Made by a program: the position numbers and the translations under genes | Part shown: positions 6,279 through 47,089 of the stretch, one piece after another | Position numbering within the stretch: the first letter of the stretch is position 1 | Layout: each line of letters starts with the position of its first letter | Notes under the pieces: generated by a model | Database searches by the model: none | What the model was told of the DNA's origin: nothing | What the model saw: the letters and a program-made list of their open reading frames with translations, nothing else | Source: a bacterium | GTDB taxonomy: Bacteria > Bacillota > Clostridia > Christensenellales > CAG-138 | Length of the DNA: 64,000 bases | Assembly (NCBI GenBank): GCA_022778545.1 | Contig: JALFDW010000039.1 | Coordinates: 33,216 to 97,215 of the forward strand | Direction: 5' to 3'

Positions 6279-6351
6279 TTCGTTTTCCTTTCAATAAAGT
6301 CAAAAAAGTCAAAATCAGAACAGAATTGCCGCCAAAGGGCGGAGCAAAACA

Positions 6352-6380
6352 GTTGCGTATTCAACAGTTGCGTTCGCAAC
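6352..6380. promoter_or_regulatory. Two adjacent pseudo-palindromes, candidate MarR operators
   Basis: GTTGCGTATTCAAC (6352-6365) and the perfect palindrome GTTGCG-TT-CGCAAC (6367-6380), in the divergent intergenic region upstream of marR. Confidence 0.45.
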
Positions 6381-6451
6381 CATATGAGAGTGTAACATAT
6401 TGCCGGTAAAATGTAAAGGGAACTTTTGGAATCGATCTGGAAATGCTCCGA

Positions 6452-6480
6452 TTGACACAACGAACCCTTCATGCTATATT
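6452..6480 (+). promoter_or_regulatory. Sigma-70-type promoter giving a (near) leaderless mRNA for the kinase gene
   Basis: TTGACA (6452-6457), 17-nt spacer, TATATT (6475-6480). ATG 6488 lies 7 nt after the -10 box and has no SD. Confidence 0.5.
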
Positions 6481-6487
6481 CAAACCC

Positions 6488-7096
6488 ATGAAACGGACTG
6501 AAACAGAAGCCGCCCTGCTGGCGGAACTCAAACAACGCATTACAGCGCATGGCCATGCGGTCGTAGCCATCGACGGCAACGCCGCCTCCGGAAAAACCAC
6601 CCTTGCCGCACAGATCGCGGAACATTTTGCGCCGCAATGCAGCGTAAACGTGTTCCATATGGATGATTTTTTCCTGCCGCCTGCCCTCCGCACGCCGGAG
6701 CGCCTCGGCGAACCGGGCGGCAACGTGCATTACGAGCGTTTCCGGAGCGAGGTGCTTGCAGGGATCGCCGCAAACGCCCCGTTTTCCTACGGCGTGTTCG
6801 ATTGCAGCGTGATGGCAATAACGCACAGCGTCGCTGCAGAACCGGCAGCACTTTCCATCATCGAGGGCGCATACAGCATGCACCCGTATTTCGGCGCGCC
6901 GTACGACCTGCGCATCTTCCTTTCCGCAACGGCAGAAACACAGCGCGCGCGCATTCTCCGGCGCAACGGCGCAGAAATGCTCAGGCGCTTTGAAACGATA
7001 TGGATCCCCATGGAAAACCGCTATTTTGAAGCCTTCCGCATCCGGGAACAGTGCGATTTCGTGCTGCGGGCGGAAGAAACCGCAGCGGAAAACTAA
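6488..7096 (+). CDS. Uridine kinase / P-loop nucleoside kinase family protein
   Basis: P-loop AIDGNAASGKTTLA. Length about 200 aa. The ORF-track start at 6443 lies inside the promoter, so I use ATG 6488. Confidence 0.65.
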   Translation: MKRTETEAALLAELKQRITAHGHAVVAIDGNAASGKTTLAAQIAEHFAPQCSVNVFHMDDFFLPPALRTPERLGEPGGNVHYERFRSEVLAGIAANAPFSYGVFDCSVMAITHSVAAEPAALSIIEGAYSMHPYFGAPYDLRIFLSATAETQRARILRRNGAEMLRRFETIWIPMENRYFEAFRIREQCDFVLRAEETAAEN

Positions 7097-7101
7097 GTCC
7101 G

Positions 7102-9252
7102 CTATGCTTTCACAAGCTTCGCGCGGAAGCTGATGCGCCGCTGCGTGGGCAGAATATCGAACTGCACGACATATGCGCTTGCAGCAAGGTCCACTTCCAC
7201 GATCACGCCATCACCCATGATCGCATGGCGTATGCGGTCGCCCGGCTGGAATTGCGCCTGCTCCGAAGCGGGTGCAAGCAGGCGTTCGCTCGCCTCAATG
7301 TGGCGAAACGCATCCCGAAGAAGGCGCGTATCCTCCATGCCCTCCCGCACAAGCAGCGGCTCATCCACATTGAACAGGAAGCGCGAAGGATAGCGGAACG
7401 AGCCGTCAAAATTCCGCCCTTCGGACTCGCTCAGCGACAGCGAACGCTGTGCCCGCGTGAACGCCACGAACGCAAGCCGCCTTTCCTCCTCCATCGCCTC
7501 GATGGTGGAGGTTTTTTTCGAAGGAAACACCCCCTCCTCCATCCCCGCGAGGAACACATGCGGGAACTCCAGCCCCTTTGCGGTGTGGACGGTCATCATG
7601 CGCACGCGCTCACCATCCTGCGCCGCATCCGTGTTGGTAAGGAGCGCAACGCGCGCAAGATACCCTTCCAGGGTCGCTTCCTCGCCGCAGGTCGTCTCGA
7701 ATTCGTAGATCGCCTGCTTGAGTTCCGCAAGGTTGTCGAGCCGATCCTGCGCGCCCTCGGTGCGGAGCATCGTTTCATATCCGCTTTCGTCGAGGATCGC
7801 GCTCAAAAGCTCGGACACGGGCGTCTCCGGGCTGGGCGCGCCAAAACGTTCCACCAGGTCCACGAGTTTATGCGCCTGCGTTTTTTTCAGCAGTTCGTGC
7901 TCCAGATTCTGCACAAGCGCCGCGTACAGCGTGCAGCCGTTCGCTTCGGCATATTCCTGCAGAAAGCGCATGCGCCGCTCGCCGATGTTCCTTTTGGGCA
8001 CGTTCGCCACGCGCAGGAAGGAGAGGTCATCCCGATAGGCCACAAGCCGCAGATAGGAAAGCGCATCCTTGATCTCCATGCGATTGAAAAACTGCACGCC
8101 GCTGAAAATCGTGTATGGGATCTCCTCCTTTAAAAAGACTTCCTCCAGCGTGCGGCTGATGTGGTGCGCGCGGTAGAGGATGGCGATATTCCGGAGCGGA
8201 ACGCCCTCCGCGGAAAGGGCTTTGATCCGCCCCGCGATCCAGAGCGCTTCCGCCTCCGCCGTTTTCGCATGGTGCCAAACCACGGGAGCGCCCGCAGGCA
8301 GCGTGGGAATGAGTTCTTTTTCAATGCGGCTACGGTTCTTCGCAATGAGCGAGTTGGCCGCGGCGAGGATCTCCGGCGTGGAGCGGTAGTTCCGCATCAT
8401 GAGGATCGTTTCCGTGCCGGGGAAGTTCTTGTCAAAGTCGAGAAGGTAGCGCACGTTCGCGCCGCGCCAGGTGTAGATCGTCTGATCCGGGTCGCCGACG
8501 ATGAAGAGATTTTTATGGTGTGCGCAAAGCGCTTCCATAAGCCTGTATTGCAGTGCATCGATGTCCTGAAATTCATCCACCATGATGTATTCCAGGCGCC
8601 TCTGCCATTTTTCGCGGATCTCCGCATCGTTTTCAAAGATGTAGAGCGTGTATTTGATGAGGTCGTTGTAGTCAAGGCCGAAGCACTTCTTCTGCTGATA
8701 CAGATAACCGTAAAAGATGATGTCCCGAGGCGCATCCGCAGCGAGGTATTTCGCCCGCAGGCCGTCGAGCGGCATGGCGATCATGTCCTCATAATAATCG
8801 GGGTTTTCGACGGTCTTGCGGATCTCGATCATATCCCGCGCGTTGGAGAAGGTCATGTGCCGGAGCGTGAGGCCGCGCTCCTCATAGATGATCTTGAGCA
8901 TGGCGTCAATATCGGAATTATCGAGTACAAGGAAGTTCTTCGGATATTGCACAGCATGGCTGTCCTCCTGCAAAACGGAAACGCAGAAGCTGTGGAACGT
9001 GCAGACGTAGCCGGTGTCGTTGTCGCCCGTGAGCAGGTGGATGCGCTGGCGCATCTCGTTTGCGGCCTTGTTGGTAAATGTCACGGAGAGGATGTTCGCA
9101 GGCAGGATACCCACCTCGTTCACAAGGTACGCAAAGCGGTGCGCAAGCGCGCGCGTTTTTCCGCTGCCCGCCCCCGCGATGACGCGCACATAGCCTTCCG
9201 TGGCCATGACGGCGCTGCATTGTTCCGCGTTCAAGCCTTCCAGAATGTCCAT
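7102..9252 (-). CDS. pcrA: ATP-dependent DNA helicase PcrA/UvrD family
   Basis: Walker A AGAGSGKTRAL, motif II MVDEFQD, TVHTAKGLEF. Start at ATG 9252 (MDILEGLNAEQ) with GGAGGA 6 nt upstream. Confidence 0.9.
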   Translation of the reverse strand: MDILEGLNAEQCSAVMATEGYVRVIAGAGSGKTRALAHRFAYLVNEVGILPANILSVTFTNKAANEMRQRIHLLTGDNDTGYVCTFHSFCVSVLQEDSHAVQYPKNFLVLDNSDIDAMLKIIYEERGLTLRHMTFSNARDMIEIRKTVENPDYYEDMIAMPLDGLRAKYLAADAPRDIIFYGYLYQQKKCFGLDYNDLIKYTLYIFENDAEIREKWQRRLEYIMVDEFQDIDALQYRLMEALCAHHKNLFIVGDPDQTIYTWRGANVRYLLDFDKNFPGTETILMMRNYRSTPEILAAANSLIAKNRSRIEKELIPTLPAGAPVVWHHAKTAEAEALWIAGRIKALSAEGVPLRNIAILYRAHHISRTLEEVFLKEEIPYTIFSGVQFFNRMEIKDALSYLRLVAYRDDLSFLRVANVPKRNIGERRMRFLQEYAEANGCTLYAALVQNLEHELLKKTQAHKLVDLVERFGAPSPETPVSELLSAILDESGYETMLRTEGAQDRLDNLAELKQAIYEFETTCGEEATLEGYLARVALLTNTDAAQDGERVRMMTVHTAKGLEFPHVFLAGMEEGVFPSKKTSTIEAMEEERRLAFVAFTRAQRSLSLSESEGRNFDGSFRYPSRFLFNVDEPLLVREGMEDTRLLRDAFRHIEASERLLAPASEQAQFQPGDRIRHAIMGDGVIVEVDLAASAYVVQFDILPTQRRISFRAKLVKA

Positions 9253-9442: not shown

Positions 9443-9518
9443 GCGGGAGTAGCTCATTTGGTAGAGCGCCGCCTTGCCAAGGCGGAGGTGGCGGGTTCGA
9501 GCCCCGTCTCCCGCTCCA
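9443..9518 (+). tRNA. tRNA-Gly (anticodon GCC)
   Basis: Cloverleaf readable. Acceptor GCGGGAG/CTCCCGC, anticodon loop CTTGCCAAG, T-arm GGTTCGAGCCC, encoded CCA. Confidence 0.9.
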
Positions 9519-9522
9519 ATAT

Positions 9523-9598
9523 GCACCCTTAGCTCAGTTGGTAGAGCACCTGACTCTTAATCAGGGTGTCCAGGGTTCGAGCCCCTGAGGGTGTACCA
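9523..9598 (+). tRNA. tRNA-Lys (anticodon CTT)
   Basis: Acceptor GCACCCT/AGGGTGT, anticodon stem-loop CCTGA-CTCTTAA-TCAGG, T-arm GGTTCGAGCCC, encoded CCA. Confidence 0.9.
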
Positions 9599-11657: not shown

Positions 11658-12527
11658 ATGAGGAGATCCATGCTGTTCCTGCCCGGCAACACGCCGAACA
11701 TCATCATCAACGGCGATGCACTGGGCGCTGACTGCATCATACTCGACTTGGAGGACGCCGTTGCGCCCGATCAGAAGGACGCCGCGCGTCTGCTCGTCTG
11801 CAATGCCATCGGCGAGATGGGCTTTGAAGGATGCGAGGTGACCGTGCGCATCAATTCGCTCGATACCGCCTACTGGAAGGATGATCTTGATGCGATCATT
11901 CCCCTTCGCCCGGATATGATCATGCCTGCGAAGGTGAGCCGCGCCGCCGACATTGAGACGCTCGACGCTTATATTTCCGCCCTTGAGGACAAGCACGGCA
12001 TGGAGCGCAACACCGTGAAGCTGATCCCGCTCATCGAAACCGCGCTCGGCGTGGAAAACGCCTTTTCCATCGCCTCCGCAAGCCCGCGTGTGACCGCGCT
12101 GTTTTTAGGCGGCGAGGACCTGAGCGCGGACCTGCGCTGCAAGCGCACCAAAGGCGGCGAAGAGATCCGCTACGCCCGCGGCCGGATGGTGATGGCGGCG
12201 CGCGCAGCCGGCATCGACGTATACGACACGCCGTTTACCGACGTGAACGACGATGAAGGGGCACTTGCGGACGCGCAGTTCGCAAAGAGCCTCGGTTTCT
12301 CCGGAAAGGCTGCGATCTCCCCGCGGCATGTGCCGCTCATCAACGAGGCCTTCAGCCCCACGGCGGACGAAATCGAATATGCGACCGAGGTCTTTGCCGC
12401 CATCGAACAGGCAAAGCTTCAGGGACGCGGCGCAATCTCCCTGCGCGGCAAGATGATCGACGCCCCCATCGTGGAACGCGCACGGCAGACGCTTGAAGCG
12501 GCACGCCAGCTCGGGCTTGCCCAATAA
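11658..12527 (+). CDS. citE: CitE-like lyase beta subunit (HpcH/HpaI aldolase/citrate lyase family); by context the citramalate/citramalyl-CoA lyase
   Basis: MRRSMLFLPGNTPNIIINGDALGADCIILDLEDAV is the typical CitE N-terminus. AAGGAGA lies 7 nt upstream of ATG 11658. Confidence 0.85.
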   Translation: MRRSMLFLPGNTPNIIINGDALGADCIILDLEDAVAPDQKDAARLLVCNAIGEMGFEGCEVTVRINSLDTAYWKDDLDAIIPLRPDMIMPAKVSRAADIETLDAYISALEDKHGMERNTVKLIPLIETALGVENAFSIASASPRVTALFLGGEDLSADLRCKRTKGGEEIRYARGRMVMAARAAGIDVYDTPFTDVNDDEGALADAQFAKSLGFSGKAAISPRHVPLINEAFSPTADEIEYATEVFAAIEQAKLQGRGAISLRGKMIDAPIVERARQTLEAARQLGLAQ

Positions 12528-17015: not shown

Positions 17016-18407
17016 ATGATGAAACCCATCCTGTTGATCGACTTTGGCAGCACCTACACCAAGGTGACTGCGGTGGATGCGGATCATGCGCAGCTTTTAG
17101 GCTCCGCCGCCGCGTACACCACCGTGCAGACGGACGTGAACGACGGCCTTGCAAACGCCGTTGCCCTGCTTGAAAAGCAGACGGGCAAGCTCGATTTTGC
17201 GGAGCGCTACGCCTGCTCGAGCGCCGCAGGCGGCCTCCGGATGATCGCAAGCGGCCTCGTGCCGGAACTCACGGCGGAAGCGGCAAAATGCGCAAGCCTC
17301 GGCGCAGGTGCAAAGGTCATAAGAACCTACTCCTTCGAGCTGACCGAGGACGACGCCGCGGAGATCGTTGCCGAAAAGCCGGACATCTTCCTGCTCGTTG
17401 GCGGGACGGACGGCGGCAACAAGGCCTGCATCCTAAACAACGCGCACATGCTCGCGGAAGCGGGCGGGGACTTCCCCATCGTGATCGCCGGCAACCGCAA
17501 CGCCGCGCGGGAATGTGAACGCATCCTCGCCGGGCGGGAGGTTTACGTCTGCGAAAACGTGATGCCCAAGTTCGGCGTACTGAACATCGAACCCACGCAG
17601 CAGCGCATCCGCGACATCTTCCTGAGCCGCATCGTGCGCGCCAAGGGGCTCACGAAGGCAAGCGAGCTCATCTCCGGCATCATGATGCCCACACCCTCCG
17701 CCTTCCTTGCAGCCATGCAGCTGCTTGCGGACGGCACAAAGGAGCAAAGCGGCATCGGCGAACTCATCGCCGTGGACGTAGGCGGCGCGACGACGGATGT
17801 CTACTCCATCTCCGCCGGCATGCCGGATCACCCCGGCACGATCCTCAAAGGGCTGCCTGAACCTTATGTGAAGCGCACGGTGGAAGGCGACGTCGGCATG
17901 CGTTACAGCATCCACGGCATCGTGGATGCGGCAGGGCTTGATGCCATCGCTTCCGCTTCGGGCATCGCTCCCGCCCGCGCGCAGGAGCTTGTGGACTATC
18001 TCGGCACGCACACGGATGTGCTCCCCACCACCCCGGAGCTTGAAGCCCTTGATGAGGCGCTCGCGAGCTACGCCATCCGGACTGCCGTCACGCGCCACGC
18101 GGGCCGCATCGAGGAATCCTACACCATGATGGGCCTTGCCTACGCGCAGACCGGCAAGAACCTCATGAACGTGGAACGTCTCGTTGTCACGGGCGGTTCG
18201 CTCATCCATACAAAGAACACCGGGAAGATCGCTTCCTACGCCCTGTATGATCCCAAGGACCCCACCTCGCTCAAGCCGCGCAAAGCCGAGCTGCTGGTGG
18301 ACCGGAAATACATCCTTGCCGCAATGGGTCTTTTGAGCAAGTATTACCCCGAAGCGGCGCTGACCATCATGAAGAAGGAGCTTGAAAACGATGGACTTGC
18401 AGAATAA
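17016..18407 (+). CDS. glmL: Glutamate mutase-associated protein GlmL/MutL (reactivase/chaperone)
   Basis: 463 aa. [16 protein letters not shown]-type ATPase N-terminus. Conserved position between the S and E subunits. Confidence 0.85.
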
Positions 18408-19848
18408 ACGCATCCCCGACCAGGAGTTTTACAAAATTCGCGAAGAAGTACTGCAGCAGTGGCCGACCGGCAAGGCCGTAGACCTTGAGGAAGCCATCGC
18501 TTACCACAAATCCCTGCCCGACAAGAAGGTGTTCTCCAAGAAGCTGATCGACGCAAAGAACCGCGGCGTGACGCTGATCCAGCCGCGCGCGGGCGTTGCG
18601 CTCATCAAAGATCAGATTGAGTTGCTCACCTACCTGCAGAACAAGGGTGAAGCGGATCTCCTGCCCACCACGATTGACAGCTACACCCGCCAGAACCGCT
18701 ACGAAGAGGCGGAGACGGGCATCCGCGAATCCTTCAAGGAAGGCCGCTCCATGCTCAACGGCTTCCCGGCCGTCAACCACGGCGTTGCCGGCTGCCGCCA
18801 GCTGATCGACAGCCTCGACACGCCCATCCAGGTGCGCCACGGGACTCCGGATGCGCGTCTTCTCACTGAGATCGCCTACGCGGGCGGCTTCACGAGCTAT
18901 GAAGGCGGCGGCATCTCCTACAACCTGCCGTATGCGAAAAACGTCCCCATGGAGCGCACCATCCGCGACTGGCAGTATGTGGATCGTCTGACCGGCCTCT
19001 ATGAAGAAGCGGGCGTTTCCATCAACCGCGAGCCCTACGGCCCGCTCACCGGCACCCTCGTGCCTCCCTGCGTTTCCCATGCGGTCGCCATCATCGAAGC
19101 GCTGCTTGCGGCGGAGCAGGGCGTAAAGAACATCACCGTCGGCTACGGCCAGTGCGGCAACCTTGTACAGGACGTCGCAGCTATCCGCACGCTGGAAGAG
19201 CTTACGGACGAATACCTCGAAAAGAGCGGCCATGGCGACGTAATCGTCACCACCGTGTTCCACCAGTGGATGGGCGGCTTCCCGCAGGATGAAGCGAAGG
19301 CCTTCGGCGTCATCTCCTGGGGCAGCGCCACCGCCGCGCTCTCCAAGGCCACAAAGGTCATCGTCAAGACCCCGCATGAGGCCGCCGGCGTCCCCACCAT
19401 GGAAGCAAACGCGCAGGGCCTGCGCTGCACCAAGCAGGTGATCAGCATGCTGGCCGACCAGACCTGCACCGCCGCGAACCTGGAGCAGGAAAAGGAAGTC
19501 ATCCGCTGCGAAACGCGCGCCATCCTCGATAAGTGCTTCGAGCTTGGCAACGGCGACATCGCTGTGGGCGCCGTCCGCGCCGTGCAGGCTGGTGTGCTCG
19601 ATATCCCGTTCGCACCCTCCCGCTTCAACGCGGGCAAGATGCTCCCTGCGCGCGACAACACCGGCGCGATCCGCATCCTTGAGCCCGGCAACATGCCGCT
19701 CACCAAGGACATGATGGATTTCAACCGCGGCATGATCGAGGAGCGCGCCAAGTACGAAAAGCGCAAGGCTTCCTTCCAGATGGTCATCGACGACATCTAC
19801 GCCATCAGCAAGGGCCGCCTCGTCGGCAGGCCGCAGGGCATGCGCTAA
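18391..19848 (+). CDS. glmE: Glutamate mutase epsilon (catalytic) subunit
   Basis: [28 protein letters not shown] matches the clostridial MutE N-terminus. ATG 18391 has AAGGAG 10 nt upstream. The ORF-track TTG start at 18382 is less likely. Confidence 0.92.
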
Positions 19849-38080: not shown

Positions 38081-38110
38081 AAAGGACGCATTTTTCCATG
38101 CGTCCTTTTT
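38081..38110. terminator. Bidirectional terminator (ends arcA and the minus-strand T-box operon)
   Basis: AAAGGACGCAT-TTTTCC-ATGCGTCCTTT flanked by A- and T-runs. Confidence 0.8.
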
Positions 38111-38150: not shown

Positions 38151-39317
38151 TTAGCCCATCTTGCTCTTGATGTCCGCCAAACGCTCCAAAGCGGTGAGCA
38201 GCGTCTCATCCTTCTTGGCGAAATGCACGCGCACGATATCGTTTACATCCTCCATGAAGAAAGAGGTTCCGGGCACGCAGGCTACGCCAACCTTGCAGGC
38301 CATCTCCTCGCAGAATTCCACATCCGTCTGCCCCTTCTTAAGGAACGGGCCGATGTTTGCAAGCACAAAATACGCGCCCTGCGGGTCCGTGTACGGGATG
38401 CCGATGGAATCAAGGCCCTTCGTGAAAAGCTCCTTCATGTGCGCATAATGGGCGCCGAATTCCGCATAGTAGCTGTCCGGCATGTCAAGGCCGGCGATAG
38501 CGGCTTCCATGAGCACGGAAGGCGCGCCCACGGTGTTGAAATCATGGAACTGCTTGATGCGGTCCATCAGGTGCTTGGGCGCGATGGCATAGCCCAACCT
38601 CCATCCCGTGATGGAATAGGTCTTGGAGAGTGAGCTGCAGGAAATCGTCCGCTCCCACATGCCGGGCAGGCTGTTCATGTAAATATGGCGGTGGGGCGCA
38701 TAAACGATGTGCTCATACACCTCATCCATAATAACATAAACGTCATACCGGATTGCCAGATCCGCAATGAGCTTGAGTTCCGCTTCGGTAAACACCTTGC
38801 CGCTCGGGTTGGAGGGGTTGCAGATGAGGATAGCTTTGGGATGCTGCTTAAAAGCGTCCTCCAGCACGTTGGGGTCAAAGTGGAACGTGGGCGGCACCAA
38901 CGGCACGAAGATGGGCTCACAGTCCGCCATGATGGCCTGCGCCCGGTAGTTCTCAAAATAAGGGGAGAACATCACGATCTTATCCCCGGGGTTCGTCAGG
39001 GCGAATATGGTATCCACCATAGCCTCGGTGGAACCGATCGTGACCACAATCTCCGTCTCCGGATCCAGGGTACGCCCCATGAAACGGCCACACTTGCGGG
39101 CCAGAGCCTGCCGGAAGTTCGGCGCGCCCATGGTGATGGGGTACTGATGCGGCCCCAGAGCGCTGATCTCATCCAAACGGTCGGTCAGAGCTTTGGGCGG
39201 GTCAAAATCCGGGAAGCCCTGCGCCAGGTTGATGGCTCCGCACTCGATGGAAATGCGGGTCATCCGCCGGATGACGGAATCGGTGAACATTTGTGTTTTT
39301 CTGCTGACTTCTTGCAC
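38151..39317 (-). CDS. Class I pyridoxal-phosphate aminotransferase (YbdL/KAT-like)
   Basis: INLAQGFPDF, NPSNPSGK and SLSKTYSITGWRLGY (PLP Lys). The ORF extends to a TTG at 39335, but GTG 39317 has GAAGGA 7 nt upstream. Confidence 0.85.
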   Translation of the reverse strand: MQEVSRKTQMFTDSVIRRMTRISIECGAINLAQGFPDFDPPKALTDRLDEISALGPHQYPITMGAPNFRQALARKCGRFMGRTLDPETEIVVTIGSTEAMVDTIFALTNPGDKIVMFSPYFENYRAQAIMADCEPIFVPLVPPTFHFDPNVLEDAFKQHPKAILICNPSNPSGKVFTEAELKLIADLAIRYDVYVIMDEVYEHIVYAPHRHIYMNSLPGMWERTISCSSLSKTYSITGWRLGYAIAPKHLMDRIKQFHDFNTVGAPSVLMEAAIAGLDMPDSYYAEFGAHYAHMKELFTKGLDSIGIPYTDPQGAYFVLANIGPFLKKGQTDVEFCEEMACKVGVACVPGTSFFMEDVNDIVRVHFAKKDETLLTALERLADIKSKMG

Positions 39318-39375
39318 GGTATATCCTTCTTTCAAACAAATTTATCTGAATTCCTTCTGTTTGGAACGCATGGGT

Positions 39376-39807
39376 TTAATGGATGCCCAGCTCTTCCCCG
39401 GTGGCGGGAGAAATACCGTTTTCATTCAGCACGGCAATGAACTTGTCCATATCCGTCACACGGAAGATCATATACGCTTTTCCATTTCCCTGCCCAAACA
39501 CGGAATACATATACTCCACATCGATGCCCGCCTCGGAGATCAAATGCAGCACTTTGGCCAATCCGCCGGGCTGATCGGGAACGCCGACAGCGACCACCGG
39601 CGTCATGGAAAGGATGACGCCCTGGCCGAGCAGGATGGAAGCCGCAGTTTCCGGCTGGTCAACGATCAGCCGCAAAACGCCGTAATCGGTGGTTTCCGCA
39701 ATGTTCAGCGCGCGCAGGTTAATGTGGCGCTCCGAGAGGATGCCTGTGATCTCTGCCAACTGGCCCGCCCGGTTTTCCAGAAACACGGATATCTGATGAA
39801 TTGTCAT
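39376..39807 (-). CDS. Tandem ACT-domain (amino-acid-binding) protein
   Basis: 143 aa. Two ACT-like beta-alpha-beta-beta-alpha-beta units (ISVFLENRAGQLAEIT and VGVPDQPGGLAKVL). Confidence 0.8.
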   Translation of the reverse strand: MTIHQISVFLENRAGQLAEITGILSERHINLRALNIAETTDYGVLRLIVDQPETAASILLGQGVILSMTPVVAVGVPDQPGGLAKVLHLISEAGIDVEYMYSVFGQGNGKAYMIFRVTDMDKFIAVLNENGISPATGEELGIH

Positions 39808-39820
39808 TGTGGTTTCCTCC

Positions 39821-41119
39821 TTAAATCTTTCGCTTATCGATCAGGCGGACAGCCTTTCCTTCGCTGCGCGCAATGGACTTCGGAGCCACAAGGCGCACTT
39901 TGGCGTAAATACCAAGCATGGCCTTCAGCGCGTTGACCAGCTGCTTCTCCTGCTCCGCCACATGGCTCAGCTGATCGGAGAACATCTCCGGCGTCATCTC
40001 CACCTGAATCTCCAGCGTATCGGAATTGTTGACCCGATCCACGATGATCTGGTAATTCGCGGCATAGCCCTGCTCCAGAAGCACGGTCTCGATCTGGGAG
40101 GGGAACACGTTGACGCCTTTGATGATGAGCATATCGTCGCTGCGGCCCATGGGCTTGGACATTCTCACATGGGTGCGGCCGCAGGAACAGGGTTTGCGGC
40201 TCAGCACGCAGATATCGCGCGTGCGGTAGCGCAGCAACGGGAACGCTTCTTTCGTGATGGAAGTGAACACCAGCTCGCCTTTTTCGCCTTCGGGCAGCAC
40301 TTCGCCGGTGTTGGGATCGATGATCTCCGCGATGAAGTGATCCTCGTTGATGTGCATGCCGTTCTGCTCGGAGCATTCAAAGCTCACGCCGGGGCCGCTG
40401 ATCTCCGTGAGGCCATAGATGTCGTAGGCTTTGATGCCGAGCCCTTTCTCGATCTCATGGCGCATTTCCTCGCTCCAGGCCTCTGCGCCAAAGATGCCGG
40501 CGCGCAGCTTGAGCTTGTCCCGGATGCCGCGCTCCGCCGCGGATTCAGCCAGGTATGCCGCATAGGAAGGCGTGCAGCAAAGGATCGTGGAACCAAGGTC
40601 CACCATGAACTGGAGCTGCCGCTCCGTATTGCCGGAGGACATGGGCAGGGTCAGGCAACCCACCCTGTGGCTGCCGCCGTTGAGGCCAGGGCCGCCGGTG
40701 AAAAGGCCGTAGCCGTAGCTGACGTGGCAAACATCCTCGTTCGTGCCGCCCGTTGCAACGATGGCGCGCGCGCAGCAATCCTCCCAAAGATCCAGGTCAT
40801 GCTGGGTATAGAAGGCGATAACGCGCTTTCCCGTGGTGCCGGAGGTGGACTGGACGCGCACGCAGTCCTTCAGCGGGCGGGCCAGCAGGCCATAGGGATA
40901 CGCCTCGCGCAGGTCGTCCTTCGTGAGGAAGGGGAGCTTGTGCAGGTCCTCTACACCCTTGATGTCCTTGGGCGTAAGGCCTTTCTCCTCCATCTTTTTG
41001 CGGTAGTATGGCACGTTGTCCCACACGTTCTGCACCTGGTTCACCAGGCGTTCGTTCTGCCAGGCGAGGATCTGCTCCCTGCTGGCACACTCGATCTCGG
41101 GTTGATAATAGCGTTCCAT
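39821..41119 (-). CDS. paaK: Phenylacetate-CoA ligase family (PaaK-type)
   Basis: 432 aa. AMP motif STSGTTGKRV. N-terminus MERYYQPEIECASREQILAWQNERL is typical of PaaK. Confidence 0.88.
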   Translation of the reverse strand: MERYYQPEIECASREQILAWQNERLVNQVQNVWDNVPYYRKKMEEKGLTPKDIKGVEDLHKLPFLTKDDLREAYPYGLLARPLKDCVRVQSTSGTTGKRVIAFYTQHDLDLWEDCCARAIVATGGTNEDVCHVSYGYGLFTGGPGLNGGSHRVGCLTLPMSSGNTERQLQFMVDLGSTILCCTPSYAAYLAESAAERGIRDKLKLRAGIFGAEAWSEEMRHEIEKGLGIKAYDIYGLTEISGPGVSFECSEQNGMHINEDHFIAEIIDPNTGEVLPEGEKGELVFTSITKEAFPLLRYRTRDICVLSRKPCSCGRTHVRMSKPMGRSDDMLIIKGVNVFPSQIETVLLEQGYAANYQIIVDRVNNSDTLEIQVEMTPEMFSDQLSHVAEQEKQLVNALKAMLGIYAKVRLVAPKSIARSEGKAVRLIDKRKI

Positions 41120-41175
41120 GGTGTTCCTTTCTTATGGCAAAAATAAATGTTTCGTAATAACGCCCTTTGCGCGGC

Positions 41176-41748
41176 TCAGGAATCGCGGCCCAGGGCAAAG
41201 GCCTTCTGGTTCAGCGCAAGGAATTTGGGCGGCACGCTCGCTTCAATGGCCTGCATCCATTCCGCTTCGGTGAAGTCGGCAGATTTGGAAAGCCTGCCCA
41301 GAAGGACCAGGTTCACCGCTTTGGAGGAACCCGCCTGCTCCGCCAGGGAGAGTGCGTCAAACGCATCCACGTCAATGCCCTTTTCCCGCATCTTATCCTC
41401 CAGCCCGTCCGGATAAGAAGCCGCACCGGTGATCACGGGCATGGGGTTGATGCGCTGGGTGTTGGTGATGATCTTGCCGCCGGGCTTGAGATACTCCGTC
41501 CAACGGGCAGCCTCCAACAGTTCAAAGGAGAGGATATAGTCCGCTTCCCCTTTATCGATGATAGGAGAATATACCTTTTCCCCATAGCGCACATATGTCA
41601 CAACGGAGCCTCCGCGCTGGCTCATGCCATGCACCTCGGACACCTTGATGTCATAGCCCCTGCCCAGCAGAAGCCGGCCCAACAGCTTGCTGGCAAGCAG
41701 GGAACCCTGGCCGCCAACGCCTACGATCATGATGTTCCTGGTTTCCAT
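41176..41748 (-). CDS. iorB: Indolepyruvate/arylpyruvate:ferredoxin oxidoreductase beta subunit
   Basis: 190 aa from ATG 41748 (SD GGAGGAGG). MIVGVGGQGSLLAS motif. 2 nt after the iorA stop. Confidence 0.88.
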   Translation of the reverse strand: METRNIMIVGVGGQGSLLASKLLGRLLLGRGYDIKVSEVHGMSQRGGSVVTYVRYGEKVYSPIIDKGEADYILSFELLEAARWTEYLKPGGKIITNTQRINPMPVITGAASYPDGLEDKMREKGIDVDAFDALSLAEQAGSSKAVNLVLLGRLSKSADFTEAEWMQAIEASVPPKFLALNQKAFALGRDS

Positions 41749-41750
41749 TT

Positions 41751-43490
41751 TCAGGCCTCCTCCCCGGCGCAAAGTGCGCCGAATTTGCAAAGCTCGGAGC
41801 AAACGCCACAGCCTGTGCAAAGGGTCGCATCGATCCGCGCCTTGCCTCCTTCCATGCTGATGGCCGGGCAGCCGATCTTCATGCACATTTTGCAGCTCTT
41901 GCAGGCCGTAGCATCCACCTTGAGCGGCGCTTTATGCTTCACATATTTCAGCAGCGCGCAGGGACGCCGGGAGATGATGACGGAAGGCTCGTCCGCCTCC
42001 GTTTCCTCCCGGATGGCCGTTTCACACGCCGCAAGGTCGTAAGGATCGATCACGCGGACGCGCCGGATGCCGACGGCATGGCACAGCGCCTCAAGATCCA
42101 CCTTGGAAGCAGGATCACCCTTAAGGTTATAGCCCGTGGTGGGGTTCTGCTGATGGCCCGTCATCCCGGTGATGGAGTTATCCAAAATGATGATGGTGCT
42201 GTTTGAGTTGTTATACGCCACGTTCACAAGGCCCGTCATGCCCGAATGCATAAACGTGGAATCGCCGATGACGGCCACAGTCTTTCTCCCTTCGGAACCG
42301 CCCGCCTTGCTGAAGCCATGAAGCCCCGGGATAGAGGCGCCCATGCAGACCACCGCGTCAATAGCATTGAGCGGAGCCACCGCACCGAGCGTGTAGCAGC
42401 CGATATCGCCGATGACGGTGTATTTCCCCTTGGCCAGCGTGTAGAACAGGCCTCTGTGGGGGCAGCCGGCGCACATGACCGGCGGGCGCGGCGGAATGGA
42501 TACGTCAAGCGCCGTACCTTTATGCGCTTCGAGGCCCAGTTTTTCCGCCACGATGTTCTGGGAAAGCTCCCCGAGGGGGGAGAAACGCGTCTTGCCTTCC
42601 GGGACAAGCCCCAGGTTCCGGCAATGATCCTCAATGAAGCCGTCCAGCTCCTCCACAACGACGAGCTGCGATACGGAGGCGGCAAAATCGCGGATGAGCT
42701 TCTCCGGCATCGGCCAGGCCATGCCCAGCTTCAGCACCGGGAAACGGTCGCCGCAGGCTTCTTTTACATATTGATAGCTGGTGCTGTGGGTAATGATGCC
42801 GATGGAATGATCCTCCCCTGCTTCAACCCGGTTGCAGGGAGCGGTTTCCGCATATTCGGCCAGCGCCGCAAGGCGCGCTTCCACGATCGGGTGGCGCAGC
42901 TTCGCATTGCCCGGCATCATGATATACTTCTTCGGGTCCTTTTCATAAGGCCTGGGAGCCGGCTCCTGCCGTTCCCCGGTCTCTACAGCGCTTTGGGAAT
43001 GGGCCACCCGGGTGCACATCTTGAGCAGCACGGGCGTGTCAAACCGCTCGGAAAGCTCATAGGCCAGTTTGGTAAATTCGAGCGCCTCGGCGCTGTCCGC
43101 AGGCTCGAGCATCGGGAGCTTCGCCGCCTTGGCATAATGGCGGGAATCCTGCTCGTTTTGGGAGCTGTGCATGCCGGCGTCATCCGCCACGCCGATGATC
43201 ATCCCGGCGTTGATGCCGGTATAAGAGATGGTGAACAACGGGTCAGCGGCAACGTTGAGCCCCACGTGCTTCATGCCGCAAAAGCTCCGCTTGCCGGCTA
43301 AAGCAGCGCCGAAGGCCGTTTCCATGCCAACCTTTTCGTTGGGCGCCCACTCGGCATAAATCTCCGGATACTTGGCTGCAGCTTCGCTGATCTCCGTGCT
43401 GGGCGTACCAGGGTAGCTGGAAAGAACCGAGCAGCCTGCCTCATACAGGCCCCTGGCAACCGCTTCGTTGCCAAGCATAAGTGTTTTCAT
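41751..43490 (-). CDS. iorA: Indolepyruvate/arylpyruvate:ferredoxin oxidoreductase alpha subunit
   Basis: 579 aa. TPP-binding region GDIGCYTLG...GDSTFMHSG. C-terminal 2x[4Fe-4S] (CKSCKMC...CP, CTGCGVC). Confidence 0.9.
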   Translation of the reverse strand: MKTLMLGNEAVARGLYEAGCSVLSSYPGTPSTEISEAAAKYPEIYAEWAPNEKVGMETAFGAALAGKRSFCGMKHVGLNVAADPLFTISYTGINAGMIIGVADDAGMHSSQNEQDSRHYAKAAKLPMLEPADSAEALEFTKLAYELSERFDTPVLLKMCTRVAHSQSAVETGERQEPAPRPYEKDPKKYIMMPGNAKLRHPIVEARLAALAEYAETAPCNRVEAGEDHSIGIITHSTSYQYVKEACGDRFPVLKLGMAWPMPEKLIRDFAASVSQLVVVEELDGFIEDHCRNLGLVPEGKTRFSPLGELSQNIVAEKLGLEAHKGTALDVSIPPRPPVMCAGCPHRGLFYTLAKGKYTVIGDIGCYTLGAVAPLNAIDAVVCMGASIPGLHGFSKAGGSEGRKTVAVIGDSTFMHSGMTGLVNVAYNNSNSTIIILDNSITGMTGHQQNPTTGYNLKGDPASKVDLEALCHAVGIRRVRVIDPYDLAACETAIREETEADEPSVIISRRPCALLKYVKHKAPLKVDATACKSCKMCMKIGCPAISMEGGKARIDATLCTGCGVCSELCKFGALCAGEEA

Positions 43491-43506
43491 AGGTTCATTC
43501 CTCCTG

Positions 43507-45063
43507 TCAGTTAGTTTGTTCGCCGATGGAATCCTTCACAGAGACGGTAACCTGCCTGTTGTAGCAGGAAAAGACCTTCTCTACCCGCTCACTGGCGGGC
43601 GCTTTCGTAATAAGGCTGACCACCGGGACGATGACGAGCCCCGCAATCATGCAGAACGCACCGCAGTTGATGGGGGACTGGAGCAGGGCGGGGAAGCTGG
43701 CGCGGGCAAAGATGTTGGCCAGCATCACCACGGTGGAGAAAAGGAAGCTCACGGCGCAGGCAGCCTTGGTGGTCCGCTTCCAGTACAGACCGTACAGGAA
43801 GGGCGCCAGGAACGCTCCCGCCAGCGCGCCCCAGGACACGCCCATAAGCTGAGCGATGAAGGTGACGCTGGACTTGTACTGGATGAGTGCCAGCACCACG
43901 GAAATCACGATGAATACCACGACGAGGCTCCGCATCCACCGTACCTGCCGTTTCTCGTCCATGTTCTTTATCATATTATCCTTAATAAAGTCCAAGGTCA
44001 AGGTCGAACTGGAAGCCAGAACGAGGGAGGACAGCGTCGACATGGAAGCCGAAAGCACCAGGATCACCACCACGGCGATGAGGAGGGTGGGCAGGCCCGA
44101 AAGCATGGTGGGGATCACGGAATCATAACCGCCCGCAGCGATGTCGATCTTGTCGCTGAAAAGCCGGCCGAAGCCGCCGAGGAAGTAGCACCCGCCAGCC
44201 ACGATGACGGCAAAAATGGTGGAGATGATCATCCCCTTGTTGATGGCGGATTCACTCTTGATGGCATAGAATTTCTGCACCATCTGCGGCAGGCCCCATG
44301 TGCCGAGGCTCGTCAGCAGGACGACGCCCAGCAGCCCCACAGGGTCAGGACCGAAGAAGGAAGCAAACACGCCGGGAGCGGAGGACACCGTCTCATCGCT
44401 GACCTGCGCGAGGTTTTGGAGCGCCTGCAGGAAACCGCCCTGGCCTTTCAACACCGCCAAGATGACAGCGGAAATGCCGAAAATCATGATGATGCCCTGA
44501 ATGAAGTCGTTGATCGCAGTAGCCATGTAACCGCCGGCGATGACATAGATGCCGGTAAGCACCGCCATGACGATGACGCAGACGGAATAGTCGATATCAA
44601 AGGCCATGGCAAAGAGGCGGCTCAGGCCGTTATACAGCGAAGCCGTATACGGGATAAGGAAAATAAAGATGATGACGGAAGCGCAGAGCTTCAGCGCCTT
44701 GCTTCCAAAGCGTTTGCCGAAAAACTCCGGCATGGTGGCACTGTCCAGATGCTGCGTCATAACCCTGGTGCGGCGGCCCAGCACAGCCCAGGCCAGCAGG
44801 GAGCCCAAAAAGGCGTTGCCCAGGCCCGCCCAGGTGGCGGCGATGCCGTATTTCCAGCCGAACTGCCCTGCATAGCCCACAAAGACCACCGCGGAGAAGT
44901 AGCTGGTGCCGTAGGCAAACGCAGTAAGCCACGGGCCAACGCTGCGCCCGCCCAGAACGAAGCCGTTCACGTCGGTGGCATGGCGGCGGCAGTAGAGGCC
45001 GATGCCCACCATAACACCGAAGAAGACGATCAGCATCGCCAGCTTGATGATCAGGTCAGTCAT
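43507..45063 (-). CDS. Sodium:solute symporter (SSS) family transporter
   Basis: 518 aa with about 13 TM helices and an SSS-like pattern. SD GGAGGA. Confidence 0.8.
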   Translation of the reverse strand: MTDLIIKLAMLIVFFGVMVGIGLYCRRHATDVNGFVLGGRSVGPWLTAFAYGTSYFSAVVFVGYAGQFGWKYGIAATWAGLGNAFLGSLLAWAVLGRRTRVMTQHLDSATMPEFFGKRFGSKALKLCASVIIFIFLIPYTASLYNGLSRLFAMAFDIDYSVCVIVMAVLTGIYVIAGGYMATAINDFIQGIIMIFGISAVILAVLKGQGGFLQALQNLAQVSDETVSSAPGVFASFFGPDPVGLLGVVLLTSLGTWGLPQMVQKFYAIKSESAINKGMIISTIFAVIVAGGCYFLGGFGRLFSDKIDIAAGGYDSVIPTMLSGLPTLLIAVVVILVLSASMSTLSSLVLASSSTLTLDFIKDNMIKNMDEKRQVRWMRSLVVVFIVISVVLALIQYKSSVTFIAQLMGVSWGALAGAFLAPFLYGLYWKRTTKAACAVSFLFSTVVMLANIFARASFPALLQSPINCGAFCMIAGLVIVPVVSLITKAPASERVEKVFSCYNRQVTVSVKDSIGEQTN

Positions 45064-45125
45064 AATGATTTTTCCTCCATAATTCTTAAATATTTAAATT
45101 CAATTATGAATTATCGCTTTTATGC

Positions 45126-46763
45126 TCAGTTGCTGATCTGAGCTTCCACAAGCCTGCCATGGCAGTATTTCTGCCGCAGAACGGGCTTTTCGATCTTGCC
45201 GGTGGGGTTGCGCGGCACCTTATCGAAGATGACCTTCCGGGGGCGCTTGTACCGGGGCAGCTCCTTGCAGAACTCGTTGATCTCCTCCTCGGTGCAGGTG
45301 AGGACCTCCTTGAGTTCGATGATGGCCGCAGCGATCTCGCCAAGGCGCGGGTCGGGCAGGCCGATAACGGCCACATCCTTGATCTTGTCGAACTTGCGCA
45401 GGAAATCCTCGATCTGCACCGGATACAGGTTCTCGCCTCCGGAAATGACCACGTCCTTCTTGCGGTCCACGAGGTAGATGAAGCCGTCTTCATCCATCCG
45501 CGCCATGTCGCCTGTATAAAGCCAGCCATCCTTCAGGATCTCCGCAGTAGCCTCCGGATTTTTGTAGTAGCAGAGCATCACGCCGGGGCCGCGGACGGTC
45601 AGCTCGCCGATGTCGCCCTCGCGCACCTCACAGCCATTCTCATCCACGATTTTTGCTTCCCACTGGTAACCGGCTTTGCCGATCGCTCCCACCTTGTGGA
45701 TATTCTCCACGCCCAAATGGACGCAGCCGGGGCCGATGGATTCGCTGAGGCCATAGTTGGTGTCGTACTGATGGTGCGGAAAGATCTTCATCCACCGGTG
45801 GATCAGGCTCGGGGGCACCGGCTGGGCGCCGATGTGCATCAGCCGCCACTGATCCAGGAGGTAATTGTTGAGGTCCACCTTGCCTGCCTCAATGGCATCG
45901 AGCAGATCCTGGCACCAGGGAACAAGCAGCCACACGATGGTGCAGCGTTCCTCGGTGATAGCCCTGAGGATCCACTCCGGCTTCACGCCCCGCAGCAGAA
46001 CGGCCTTGCTCCCGGAAAGGAGGGAGCCGAACCAGTGCATCTTGGCGCCGGTGTGGTACAGCGGCGGGATGCACAGGAACACATCCTCACGGGTCTGCCC
46101 ATGGTGATGCTGCTCCGTCTCGCAGGAGGAGAACAGGGCGCGGTGATTGTGCAGGATCGCCTTCGGGAAGCCGGTGGTGCCGGAGGAAAAATAGATCGCG
46201 GCATAGTCCGTCTCCGCAAGCGCCACCGGCGGCGCGCTGGAGGAACAGAAGCTCATAAGCCGCATGCAGTCCTCCGTATAGCTCGGGCCGTCCGTGCCCA
46301 CGAAGAACATCATGCGCACCGAGGGCAGATCGCCGGCGATGACATCCATCCGGCTCACGAATTCCGGCCCGAACACCAGTACTTCCACATCCGCGAGCTC
46401 CAGGCAGTATTTGATCTCATCGCTGGAATAGCGGAAATTCATCGGCACGGCGATGCAGCCGGCCTTCAGGATTCCAAAGTAAATAGGCAGCCACTCAAGG
46501 CAGTTCATCATCAAAATGCCCACTTTTGTCTCCCGCTGCACGCCGCGGCTCAGCAGCAGGTTGGCGAAACGGTTGGCTCGGCGGTCAAAATCCGCCCAGG
46601 TCATCTCCCGGCGGTAGGGCGCGTTGGGCTGCGCGCTTTCGATGAGCTGCGCTTCACGCCAGGTAACAGCTCTGTCCCGTTCTTCGGACGGGTTGATCTC
46701 AACGAGGCTGACCTCACCCCCGTAGAGCCGGGCATTTCTTTCCAACAATTCCGTGATTACCAT
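45126..46763 (-). CDS. AMP-forming acyl-CoA synthetase (class I adenylate-forming enzyme)
   Basis: 545 aa from ATG 46763 (SD GGAGAAGGAG). YFSSGTTGFPKA and YTGDMARMDEDGFIYLVDRKKD motifs. Confidence 0.88.
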   Translation of the reverse strand: MVITELLERNARLYGGEVSLVEINPSEERDRAVTWREAQLIESAQPNAPYRREMTWADFDRRANRFANLLLSRGVQRETKVGILMMNCLEWLPIYFGILKAGCIAVPMNFRYSSDEIKYCLELADVEVLVFGPEFVSRMDVIAGDLPSVRMMFFVGTDGPSYTEDCMRLMSFCSSSAPPVALAETDYAAIYFSSGTTGFPKAILHNHRALFSSCETEQHHHGQTREDVFLCIPPLYHTGAKMHWFGSLLSGSKAVLLRGVKPEWILRAITEERCTIVWLLVPWCQDLLDAIEAGKVDLNNYLLDQWRLMHIGAQPVPPSLIHRWMKIFPHHQYDTNYGLSESIGPGCVHLGVENIHKVGAIGKAGYQWEAKIVDENGCEVREGDIGELTVRGPGVMLCYYKNPEATAEILKDGWLYTGDMARMDEDGFIYLVDRKKDVVISGGENLYPVQIEDFLRKFDKIKDVAVIGLPDPRLGEIAAAIIELKEVLTCTEEEINEFCKELPRYKRPRKVIFDKVPRNPTGKIEKPVLRQKYCHGRLVEAQISN

Positions 46764-46795
46764 TGTTTTCTCCTTCTCCTTTTCCTGTACGCGGA

Positions 46796-47049
46796 TAAAA
46801 AAAGTCCTCTGCAAAATGCAGAGGACGAGTTGACCCGTGGTACCACCTCAATTTGCTGCCAAAAGCAGCCTCAGCAGGATACTGACATATCCCCGCGCTG
46901 TAACGGGCGCTCCCGTCATTGCCTACTTCACAGTTCAGCATGCCGCTCCGAAAGGTATTCAGCGAAAGCGCGTCCACTGCCTCGCACCACCCGGCAGCTC
47001 TCTTGGGATGCTTTCTCCCGCCTACTTGGTTTCTTCAACGCATTTGAAT
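46796..47049 (-). promoter_or_regulatory. T-box riboswitch leader, specifier aligned to UAC (Tyr)
   Basis: Read on the minus strand. AGTA S-turn 47026-47023. AGAGAG bay 47003-46998. Distal loop GGGTGGTGCGA. GAA-TAC-C with TAC at 46957-46955. F-box CCGTTA 46906-46901. T-box AAATTGAGGTGGTACCACGGG 46854-46834. Terminator GTCCTCTGCA-TTT-TGCAGAGGAC plus T7 at 46826-46796. Confidence 0.85.
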
Positions 47050-47059
47050 AATTTCGTAC

Positions 47060-47089
47060 ATATTACCACCCTGTTTCCGCCGGTGTCAA
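47060..47089 (-). promoter_or_regulatory. Promoter of the T-box operon
   Basis: Minus strand: TTGACA (47089-47084), 18-nt spacer, extended -10 TGgTAATAT (47068-47060). Confidence 0.6.

Follow-up and report, generated by a model that had tools for sequence, protein, structure and literature searches.

In which direction does a pathway run when its genes, usually annotated as catabolic, stand behind an RNA leader that responds to uncharged tRNA? The question is raised by a seven-gene operon on the minus strand of a 64,000-nucleotide stretch of bacterial DNA (hereafter the window; contig JALFDW010000039.1 of GenBank assembly GCA_022778545.1, positions 33,216 to 97,215), whose genes encode an AMP-forming acyl-CoA synthetase (ACS), a sodium:solute symporter (SSS), the two subunits of an indolepyruvate/arylpyruvate:ferredoxin oxidoreductase (IOR), a PaaK-type phenylacetate-CoA ligase, a tandem-ACT-domain protein and an aminotransferase. 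It is very likely that a functional tyrosine T-box governs this whole operon, and the operon itself probably constitutes an anabolic salvage route from aryl acids to tyrosine and phenylalanine, a direction that we infer from the logic of its regulation. The novelty lies in the target of the T-box and not in the type of RNA.

The T-box leader family of Rfam (RF00230) matches positions 46818-47047 of the minus strand over the full length of its covariance model (1-219 of 219) with 124.9 bits against a gathering threshold of 93 (E = 2.9e-27), and Rfam reports no other cis-regulatory RNA in the 64-kb window. A first, sequence-only reading of the locus had proposed a T-box here and had named this model as a check; the promoter, S-turn, AG bulge, distal loop, F-box, T-box and terminator that it had read from the letters are all found where it placed them. 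The transcriptional leader spans 46797..47047 and comprises Stem I, Stem II, the IIA/F-box element, Stem III and the antiterminator/terminator. Its sigma-70-type promoter (47060..47089; TTGACA, 18 nt, then the extended -10 element TG-n-TAATAT) is the top promoter-like site between 37500 and 47400, with 10 of 12 matches and the TG present. Within the leader, the sequence gives the AGTA of the S-turn (47026-47023), the AGAGAG of the AG bulge (47003-46998), the Stem I distal loop GGGTGGTGCGA, the F-box CCGTTA (46906-46901) and the T-box sequence AAATTGAGGTGGTACCACGGG (46854-46834), the latter with a 7-nt bulge, UGGUACC (46839..46845), on which sequence, Rfam and fold agree. The UGGU of this bulge would base-pair with the 3'-terminal ACCA of a tRNA whose discriminator is A73, and tRNA-Tyr carries A73.

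The leader closes with a terminator, GTCCTCTGCA-TTT-TGCAGAGGAC plus T7 (46797..46826), made of a 10-bp stem, a 3-nt loop and a U7 tract, whose 5' arm holds the CCUC that the antiterminator helix also requires. This sharing had been claimed from the letters, and the folds agree with it: the terminator in its context folds at -21.4 kcal/mol (z = -3.1), whereas the antiterminator alone, with the terminator 3' arm removed, folds at -9.5 kcal/mol and shows UGGUACC as the canonical 7-nt bulge. The two structures exclude each other, and the terminator is preferred; being the more stable of the two, it constitutes the default state, and the antiterminator thus requires outside stabilisation, as in all T-boxes. 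In the fold of Stem I, GAAUACC remains unpaired as the 3' strand of the specifier loop. The leader RNA is an ordinary class I transcriptional T-box with a single deviation, the presence of a pyrimidine 3' of the specifier.

The relatives of the locus provide an independent view of this RNA. A scan of one genome per species returned at least 588 stretches matching ACS, from which the best 80 loci were taken; ACS is 77-91% identical across these 80, which belong to metagenome-assembled genomes (MAGs) of gut and rumen Clostridia (Oscillospiraceae, Faecousia, Acutalibacteraceae, Lachnospiraceae, Acetatifactor and others). A hidden Markov model (HMM) of the family, built from the leaders, places a full-length T-box directly before ACS in 28 loci and an interrupted one in L037, the 29th, and 14 orthologous T-boxes independently exceed the Rfam threshold, at 94-131 bits. 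Covariation among orthologous leaders, another check named in the sequence-only reading, was assessed on an alignment of 33 of them (A1). When supplied with no structure, RNAalifold recovers Stem I, Stem II, IIA, Stem III and the terminator, and 32 of the 51 pairs survive double changes. The antiterminator-form structure is paired in 94.3% of cells, against 39-49% when the partners are slid by 1-3 columns, and shows a compensatory change in 30 of 44 pairs, with none of 500 shuffles as good; the leaders are related and partly redundant, so that these pairing and covariation figures overstate independence, but the gap to the slid controls is still large. Compensatory changes occur in 17 of the 21 pairs of Stem I helices 1-5; AGAGA and GGUG are invariant or nearly so; helices 9 and 10, which make up the antiterminator, are 99% paired, with compensatory change in three pairs; and the terminator helix (A1 columns 290-299 with 314-323) is conserved with covariation.

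Which amino acid does the leader sense? Alignment and fold both point to UAC (tyrosine) at 46955..46957, within the GAA-UAC-C of the specifier loop 3' strand, the very codon that had been proposed from the letters. In the 33 orthologous leaders, all from other species, the columns homologous to 46957-46955 read solely UAC or UUC: UAC, as in the window, in 17 ACS leaders of the 80 related loci, and UUC in 12 ACS leaders (that of L037 included) and in all five internal leaders. The two control T-boxes, that of tyrS with GAA-UAC-A and that of trpS (in L078) with GAA-UGG-G, carry their specifiers in the same columns. The T-box database (TBDB) places the specifier at bases 2-4 of the specifier bulge, counted from the 3' end, a rule that UAC at 46957-46955 obeys, and lists UAC and UUC as the canonical tyrosine and phenylalanine specifiers, with a usage of 0.99 each (PMC7778990). 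UGGU is present in all leaders, which calls for an A73 tRNA, and GGTGGTACC is invariant in 33 of 33; the tRNA-Phe(GAA) gene of one related locus (L006) ends in GGC-A-CCA, i.e. in A73 and CCA.

The base that follows the codon (46954; A1 column 107) speaks against the specifier assignment and had already been its caveat. It is C in the window and in 32 of the 33 leaders (G once, in L059), where a purine is expected, and the tyrS and trpS controls in related loci carry A and G, respectively. This is a real departure, albeit in a secondary feature and not in the fold; the C, conserved in the leader family, is a trait of that family and does not signal a wrong register, and the register stands.

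The seven genes that follow are closely packed, as the sequence-only reading had it: their families are assigned by Pfam and NCBIfam, the gaps between them measure 2-62 nt, and folding reveals no strong or terminator-like hairpin in any of these gaps. Within the operon, the few terminator-like and promoter-like sites all fall inside genes and are weak. Past the leader, just one strong terminator follows, the intrinsic one at the operon end (38081..38110; GGACGCAT-loop-ATGCGTCC then UUUUGCUU, a hairpin with its U-tract), which lies in a 111-nt tail region folding at -35.2 kcal/mol. The same order, ACS-[SSS]-IorA-IorB-PaaK-ACT-[aminotransferase], is kept wherever the contig is long enough among the 80 loci (tblastn with the seven window proteins), the ACT gene always coming next after PaaK.

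ACS, the first gene after the T-box (45126..46763), encodes a class I adenylate-forming enzyme (PF00501 and PF13193); its closest entries in the Protein Data Bank (PDB), FadD13, FadD5 and feruloyl-CoA synthetase, do not reveal its substrate. The exact protein has no database record, but proteins 99% identical to it occur in many gut MAGs, one of them labelled Christensenellales by NCBI. The symporter (43507..45063; PF00474) has PutP and PanF as best NCBIfam matches, both below cutoff, a weak match to ActP and, in the PDB, a distant match to vSGLT only. IorA, the alpha subunit of the oxidoreductase (41751..43490), scores 690 bits against a cutoff of 650.9 for TIGR03336 and contains thiamine pyrophosphate and 4Fe-4S domains (PF02775, PF01855, Fer4), and IorB, the beta subunit (41176..41748; NF005325, 274.8 bits against a cutoff of 230; PF01558), starts 2 nt past the IorA stop. 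The PaaK-type, AMP-forming phenylacetate-CoA ligase (39821..41119; PF14535) reaches 498 bits for TIGR02155, whose equivalog cutoff is 646.3, and matches the phenylacetate-CoA ligases 4r1l, 2y27 and 2y4o of the PDB with E = 1e-117 to 1e-120; its family membership is clear and its aryl-acid specificity putative. The tandem-ACT protein (39376..39807; PF19571, ACT_8), a putative amino-acid-binding regulatory subunit, matches the 144-residue PDB entry 2f06, deposited as a 'conserved hypothetical protein' (E = 8e-29). The last gene (38151..39335; PF00155) encodes a class I (fold-type I) aminotransferase of the kynurenine/YbdL/aromatic type, nearest in the PDB to KAT I/III, E. coli YbdL and 1dju ('aromatic aminotransferase'); an in-frame GTG at 39317, with the ribosome-binding site GAAGGA at a 5-nt spacing, is a likelier start than the listed TTG at 39335.

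Taken together, these elements would operate as follows. A single transcript, bounded by the promoter at 47089 and the terminator at 38081, would be gated by a T-box for tRNA-Tyr through UAC and UGGU. When tRNA-Tyr is charged, the terminator (46826-46804) would form and transcription would end before the first gene; when it is uncharged, its anticodon would pair with the UAC of Stem I and the free ACCA end with the UGGU bulge, and the paired tRNA would stabilise the weaker antiterminator, leading to transcription of all seven genes. The symporter would then import an aryl acid, the two AMP-forming ligases (PaaK and ACS) would convert it to aryl-acetyl-CoA, IorAB would reductively carboxylate this to the arylpyruvate, using CO2 and reduced ferredoxin, and the KAT/YbdL-type aminotransferase would yield phenylalanine or tyrosine, with the tandem-ACT protein probably providing end-product feedback.

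The case for this direction begins with the switch itself. T-boxes turn genes on when the tRNA is uncharged, by stabilising the antiterminator (PMC7778990); for genes induced by shortage of an amino acid, a role in supply makes sense and one in degradation does not. The sensors are limited to tyrosine and phenylalanine, the two amino acids whose arylpyruvates IOR handles, and the full enzyme set (ligase, IOR and aminotransferase) is found within one unit. Both ligases are AMP-forming, so that activation of the acid is driven, whereas fermentative IOR pathways conserve ATP via ADP-forming acyl-CoA synthetases (PMC5817080), and the aminotransferase-iorAB operon of C. difficile includes the kinase gene butK and is sigma-54 dependent (PMC7438776). 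There is precedent for the chemistry: Methanococcus maripaludis has an experimentally established route, dependent on IOR, by which aryl acids are turned into aromatic amino acids (Porat et al., cited in PMC4162585), and in Geobacter iorAB-paaK is listed under amino-acid biosynthesis operons (PMC2700814). The kinship of the aminotransferase to kynurenine and aromatic types, the presence of tyrS, or of trpS-like and PALP-family genes, next to the operon in several lineages, the switching of the specifier between tyrosine and phenylalanine and the division of some operons into tyrosine and phenylalanine units also count in favour of synthesis.

This division is found in four loci (L002, L003, L009 and L019), in which a tyrosine box (UAC) stands before ACS-SSS and a phenylalanine box (UUC) before IorA; the two T-boxes lie at 6242-6488 and 9868-10099 in L002, and at 5990-6223 and 9584-9820 in L019. 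Behind the phenylalanine box, only the contig of L009 reaches as far as the aminotransferase, by way of IorB, PaaK and ACT. In a further locus (L054), a phenylalanine box (11846-12098) precedes PaaK-ACT only. In every split case ACS is on the tyrosine side and PaaK on the phenylalanine side, although the number of independent lineages behind these cases is probably no more than two or three. It is tempting, at somewhat less than even odds, to assign ACS (with the symporter where present) to the tyrosine side, acting on 4-hydroxyphenylacetate, and PaaK to the phenylalanine side, acting on phenylacetate. The operon family serves tyrosine and phenylalanine sensors interchangeably. The anabolic arylacetate route put forward in the sequence-only reading thus gains from the specifier switching, the split units, the AMP-forming ligases, the tyrS neighbour and the aminotransferase type, but its restriction to tyrosine proves too narrow.

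Several observations weigh against the anabolic salvage route. The direction of flux in this lineage is deduced from regulatory logic, IOR is reversible, and IorAB-PaaK clusters of the gut are usually read as producers of phenylacetate or indoleacetate. ACS lacks a diagnostic family assignment, all of its NCBIfam matches lying below cutoff. Known phenylacetate permeases belong to the ActP-like group, whereas the symporter resembles PutP and PanF, and it could import tyrosine or phenylalanine itself. In the genomes with two boxes, IorAB lies behind the phenylalanine box, so that starvation for tyrosine alone would not fully induce carboxylation, which weakens the simple view of ACS-SSS feeding tyrosine via IorAB. 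With the family HMM, nhmmer detects no T-box upstream of ACS in 51 of the 80 loci, which run the same operon without it, and starvation control is thus not universal. Finally, the 64-kb window contains no tRNA-Tyr or tRNA-Phe gene, only adjacent tRNA-Gly(GCC) and tRNA-Lys(CTT) genes (9443-9598, plus strand), and therefore offers no tRNA-Tyr for matching to the T-box by anticodon and discriminator.

The alternative that best withstands the evidence, while still unlikely, makes uptake the purpose of the switch: the T-box would chiefly induce an importer of tyrosine or phenylalanine, and the enzymes would form a loosely coupled module for recycling aryl acids and 2-oxo acids. The best families of the symporter, PutP and PanF, are indeed amino-acid and vitamin carriers rather than ActP-type carboxylate carriers, T-box control of amino-acid transporters is common (PMC2494555), and the tyrosine box of the dual-box genomes governs ACS-SSS only. 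However, the symporter is missing from about one third of the operons that extend past ACS, about 22 loci running directly from ACS to IorA, and many of these operons keep the tyrosine or phenylalanine T-box directly before ACS-IorAB-PaaK (e.g. L028, L031, L040, L045, L051, L059, L063, L069, L076 and L078-L080). Separate phenylalanine T-boxes also stand directly before IorA and before PaaK, and wherever the symporter is present it comes with an acyl-CoA ligase, as would fit the uptake and activation of a carboxylate.

The usual annotation, in which the amino acid is converted through arylpyruvate and aryl-acetyl-CoA to arylacetate and the T-box is either a relic or a means of coupling fermentation to tRNA charging, is less probable again, and by a clear step. 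It has history on its side, IOR, which is reversible, having first been described in peptide fermentation (PMC5817080; see also the references listed in PMC13285125), and an aminotransferase together with IOR also constitutes the opening half of the oxidative pathway, a combination seen in CD2382-iorAB-butK of C. difficile (PMC7438776). However, a cell that switched on the degradation of tyrosine or phenylalanine at the very moment when the cognate tRNA is uncharged would defeat its own ends, and the compensatory changes in 33 leaders, along with a specifier confined to tyrosine and phenylalanine, show that the T-box is no relic. Moreover, with two AMP-forming ligases and neither a phosphotransacylase/kinase pair nor an ADP-forming synthetase, the operon would conserve no ATP in the oxidative direction.

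Least probable by far is a different or dual register, in which the ACC (threonine) or UCC (serine) contained in UACC and UUCC would make the leader sense tRNA-Thr, tRNA-Ser or two tRNAs: the nearly invariant C does conserve ACC/UCC equally with UAC/UUC, and specifier loops with overlapping codons have been described, a response to two tRNAs being proposed for the Clostridium acetobutylicum NT-box (PMC5622331; Saad et al. 2013, as cited in PMC7778990), but the 7-nt GAA-NNN-N followed by a helix is the geometry of the tyrS and trpS controls, with the codon at positions 4-6, the base after ACC/UCC is the first paired base of the helix (A27-U108), and the encoded chemistry is unrelated to threonine or serine. 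The ACC/UCC register was rejected on this helix-bound 3' neighbour of the codon and on a discriminator mismatch, and registers AAU and AUA/AUU were rejected as they are broken by L051 (GAGUUCC), by L068 and L074 (GAAUUACC) and by L080 (CGAUACC). Serine tRNAs normally carry G73, whereas all leaders present UGGU.

The operon is, in most of its relatives, under another form of control. T-box control is the minority state (29 of 80 related loci), and the supposition that every orthologous operon carries a T-box is false; Rfam, run on 15 of the 51 loci without one, likewise reports none at its gathering score. Cultured carriers of the operon include L008 ('Bacterium 1xD42-87') and L039, in both of which it is without the T-box. 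A 26-bp palindrome, TTG-ACTTTAnCACTT-w-AAAGTGnTAAAGT (also written ACTTTAnCACTT-AAGTGnTAAAGT), covers the -35 and -10 of a conserved promoter in 64 of the 80 loci, together with a T-box in 21 of them and without one in 43 (e.g. L001:9872, L004:9916, L006:9921, L013:9433, L065:9886 and about 60 others). Further copies stand ahead of the second T-boxes and, in L001 (15691) and L053 (15666), ahead of PaaK. This palindrome is probably the operator of a putative repressor; when all open reading frames (ORFs) of the 80 loci were clustered, no transcription-factor gene recurred beside the operon. The window promoter (47060-47089) is without the palindrome, so that the T-box here appears to be the sole specific control.

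Some leaders are modified or reduced. The short, T-box-less leaders of L001 (9900-9990), L065 (9915-9990) and L047 (9905-9990) contain a hairpin and U-tract almost identical to the T-box terminator, in L065 CTCGTCCTCTGC-TTTT-GCAGAGGACGTTTTT, and those of L001 and L065 have no convincing match to an Rfam family; these leaders look like what is left of a lost T-box, or like attenuators with another antitermination mechanism. In L037 (9337-9760), 165 nt inserted in the Stem II region break up the phenylalanine T-box and form a near-perfect hairpin of -72 kcal/mol, and further palindromic sequence lies between terminator and ACS; the insertion looks like a small mobile or palindromic element.

The surroundings of the operon vary. 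In the window, its upstream neighbours are a class II aldolase and a phosphofructokinase and its downstream neighbour a convergent arginine deiminase, all unrelated to aromatic metabolism. Across the 80 loci, the only recurrent ORFs besides the seven operon genes encode a PaaI-like hotdog-fold (4HBT) thioesterase, which lies directly upstream of ACS in 38 loci at a distance of about 550 nt (e.g. L013:9480-9953) and is absent upstream of the operon of the window. In eight loci, mostly Lachnospiraceae (L013, L008, L010, L016, L017, L022, L026 and L039), a UAC-A T-box comes right after the ACT gene; in L013, this tyrosine T-box (17437-17748) is followed by a gene identified there as tyrS (17772-18995). 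The UAC-A T-box of L010 (12181-12461) scores 71 bits with the family HMM (nhmmer) and is not reported by Rfam at its gathering threshold, which implies that some genuine T-boxes of these lineages fall below this cutoff. In L078, the stretch just before the operon holds a tryptophan T-box (6445-6712) followed by genes for a trpS-like protein and a pyridoxal phosphate-dependent enzyme of the PALP family (6653-9160).

How does this system compare with those already described? As an RNA, the window leader shares with tyrosine T-boxes of the B. subtilis tyrS type (RF00230) the K-turn base, the specifier loop with its S-turn, the AG bulge and distal loop, Stem II/IIA with the F-box, Stem III, the 14-nt T-box with its UGGU bulge, the competing terminator and antiterminator and the UAC specifier, which 99% of tyrosine T-boxes carry. 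It differs from them in its target, a ligase/IOR/PaaK/aminotransferase operon instead of an aminoacyl-tRNA synthetase, a shikimate gene or a simple transporter, and its family differs in having a conserved C, not a purine, after the specifier and in the flipping of orthologs between tyrosine (UAC) and phenylalanine (UUC). The logic by which uncharged tRNA induces supply of the cognate amino acid is that of the T-box-controlled trp and ilv-leu operons, of the tyrosine operon of the B. cereus group and of phenylalanine hydroxylase (PMC2494555); there, supply means de novo synthesis or direct uptake, whereas here it would be salvage through reductive carboxylation of an exogenous fermentation end product. 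Fermentative IOR operons, such as CD2382-iorAB-butK and those of archaeal peptide fermentation, have a homologous IorAB adjoining an aminotransferase, as in the window, but combine sigma-54/activator control with a kinase or ADP-forming synthetase, where the window has a T-box and AMP-forming ligases (PMC7438776).

As a pathway, the closest parallel is the aryl-acid pathway of M. maripaludis, in which the chemistry is the one proposed here (aryl acid to aryl-acetyl-CoA, to arylpyruvate by IOR, to the amino acid); the clustering of IorAB with a PaaK-type AMP-forming ligase is a further likeness to that route and to the one in the rumen. Reductive carboxylation of phenylacetate and indoleacetate is classical physiology of rumen bacteria, reportedly described in rumen anaerobes by Allison. 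The present operon is a candidate for the genes behind it and would widen the idea to tyrosine. In comparison with M. maripaludis, the window comes from a bacterium (a MAG of gut Clostridia, labelled Christensenellales or Oscillospiraceae), and a second ligase (ACS), a symporter, an ACT protein and a dedicated aminotransferase are added within one operon. Evidence for the direction comes here from a tRNA-sensing riboswitch and not from labelling or genetics.

T-box control of an IorAB-PaaK operon, of which the sequence-only reading knew no description, does seem to be new: no full text was found that links a T-box to indolepyruvate/IOR, iorA, paaK or phenylacetate, although an earlier listing in RegPrecise, TBDB or a survey (Vitreschak 2008, Gutierrez-Preciado 2009) is possible. 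The in-silico survey of T-box regulons published in 2008 has no oxidoreductase or CoA ligase among its targets (PMC2494555), and earlier curation is made less likely by the origin of the T-box-bearing loci, all of them from MAGs whose lineages are uncultured.

What does a T-box before such an operon mean? When clusters of IOR and PaaK turn up in gut anaerobes, annotation and models routinely treat them as producers of phenylacetate, 4-hydroxyphenylacetate and indoleacetate. The interest of the riboswitch lies mainly in the evidence that it brings on a pathway usually annotated in the opposite direction: it is a rare sign, written in the genome, of the direction of a pathway whose genes are wanted when tRNA-Tyr or tRNA-Phe is uncharged. 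This is relevant to metabolic models of gut communities and to the fate of arylacetates; phenylacetate and 4-hydroxyphenylacetate are precursors of phenylacetylglutamine and p-cresol in the host. For RNA biology, the family offers a natural series of orthologous T-boxes that pass between tyrosine and phenylalanine by one base and hold a pyrimidine at a normally purine site. A broader proposal, speculative and about one chance in three in our estimate, is that abundant uncultured gut and rumen Clostridia (Oscillospirales, Christensenellales and their kin) may use tRNA-gated reductive carboxylation as a main route to phenylalanine and tyrosine, with the highly conserved ACS as a hitherto unrecognised 4-hydroxyphenylacetate-CoA ligase working with a dedicated symporter on the tyrosine side and PaaK on the phenylalanine side. 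If so, such Clostridia would be net sinks for phenylacetate and 4-hydroxyphenylacetate, and evolution would, through the one-base flip between UAC and UUC, retune the pathway to a shortage of one amino acid or the other.

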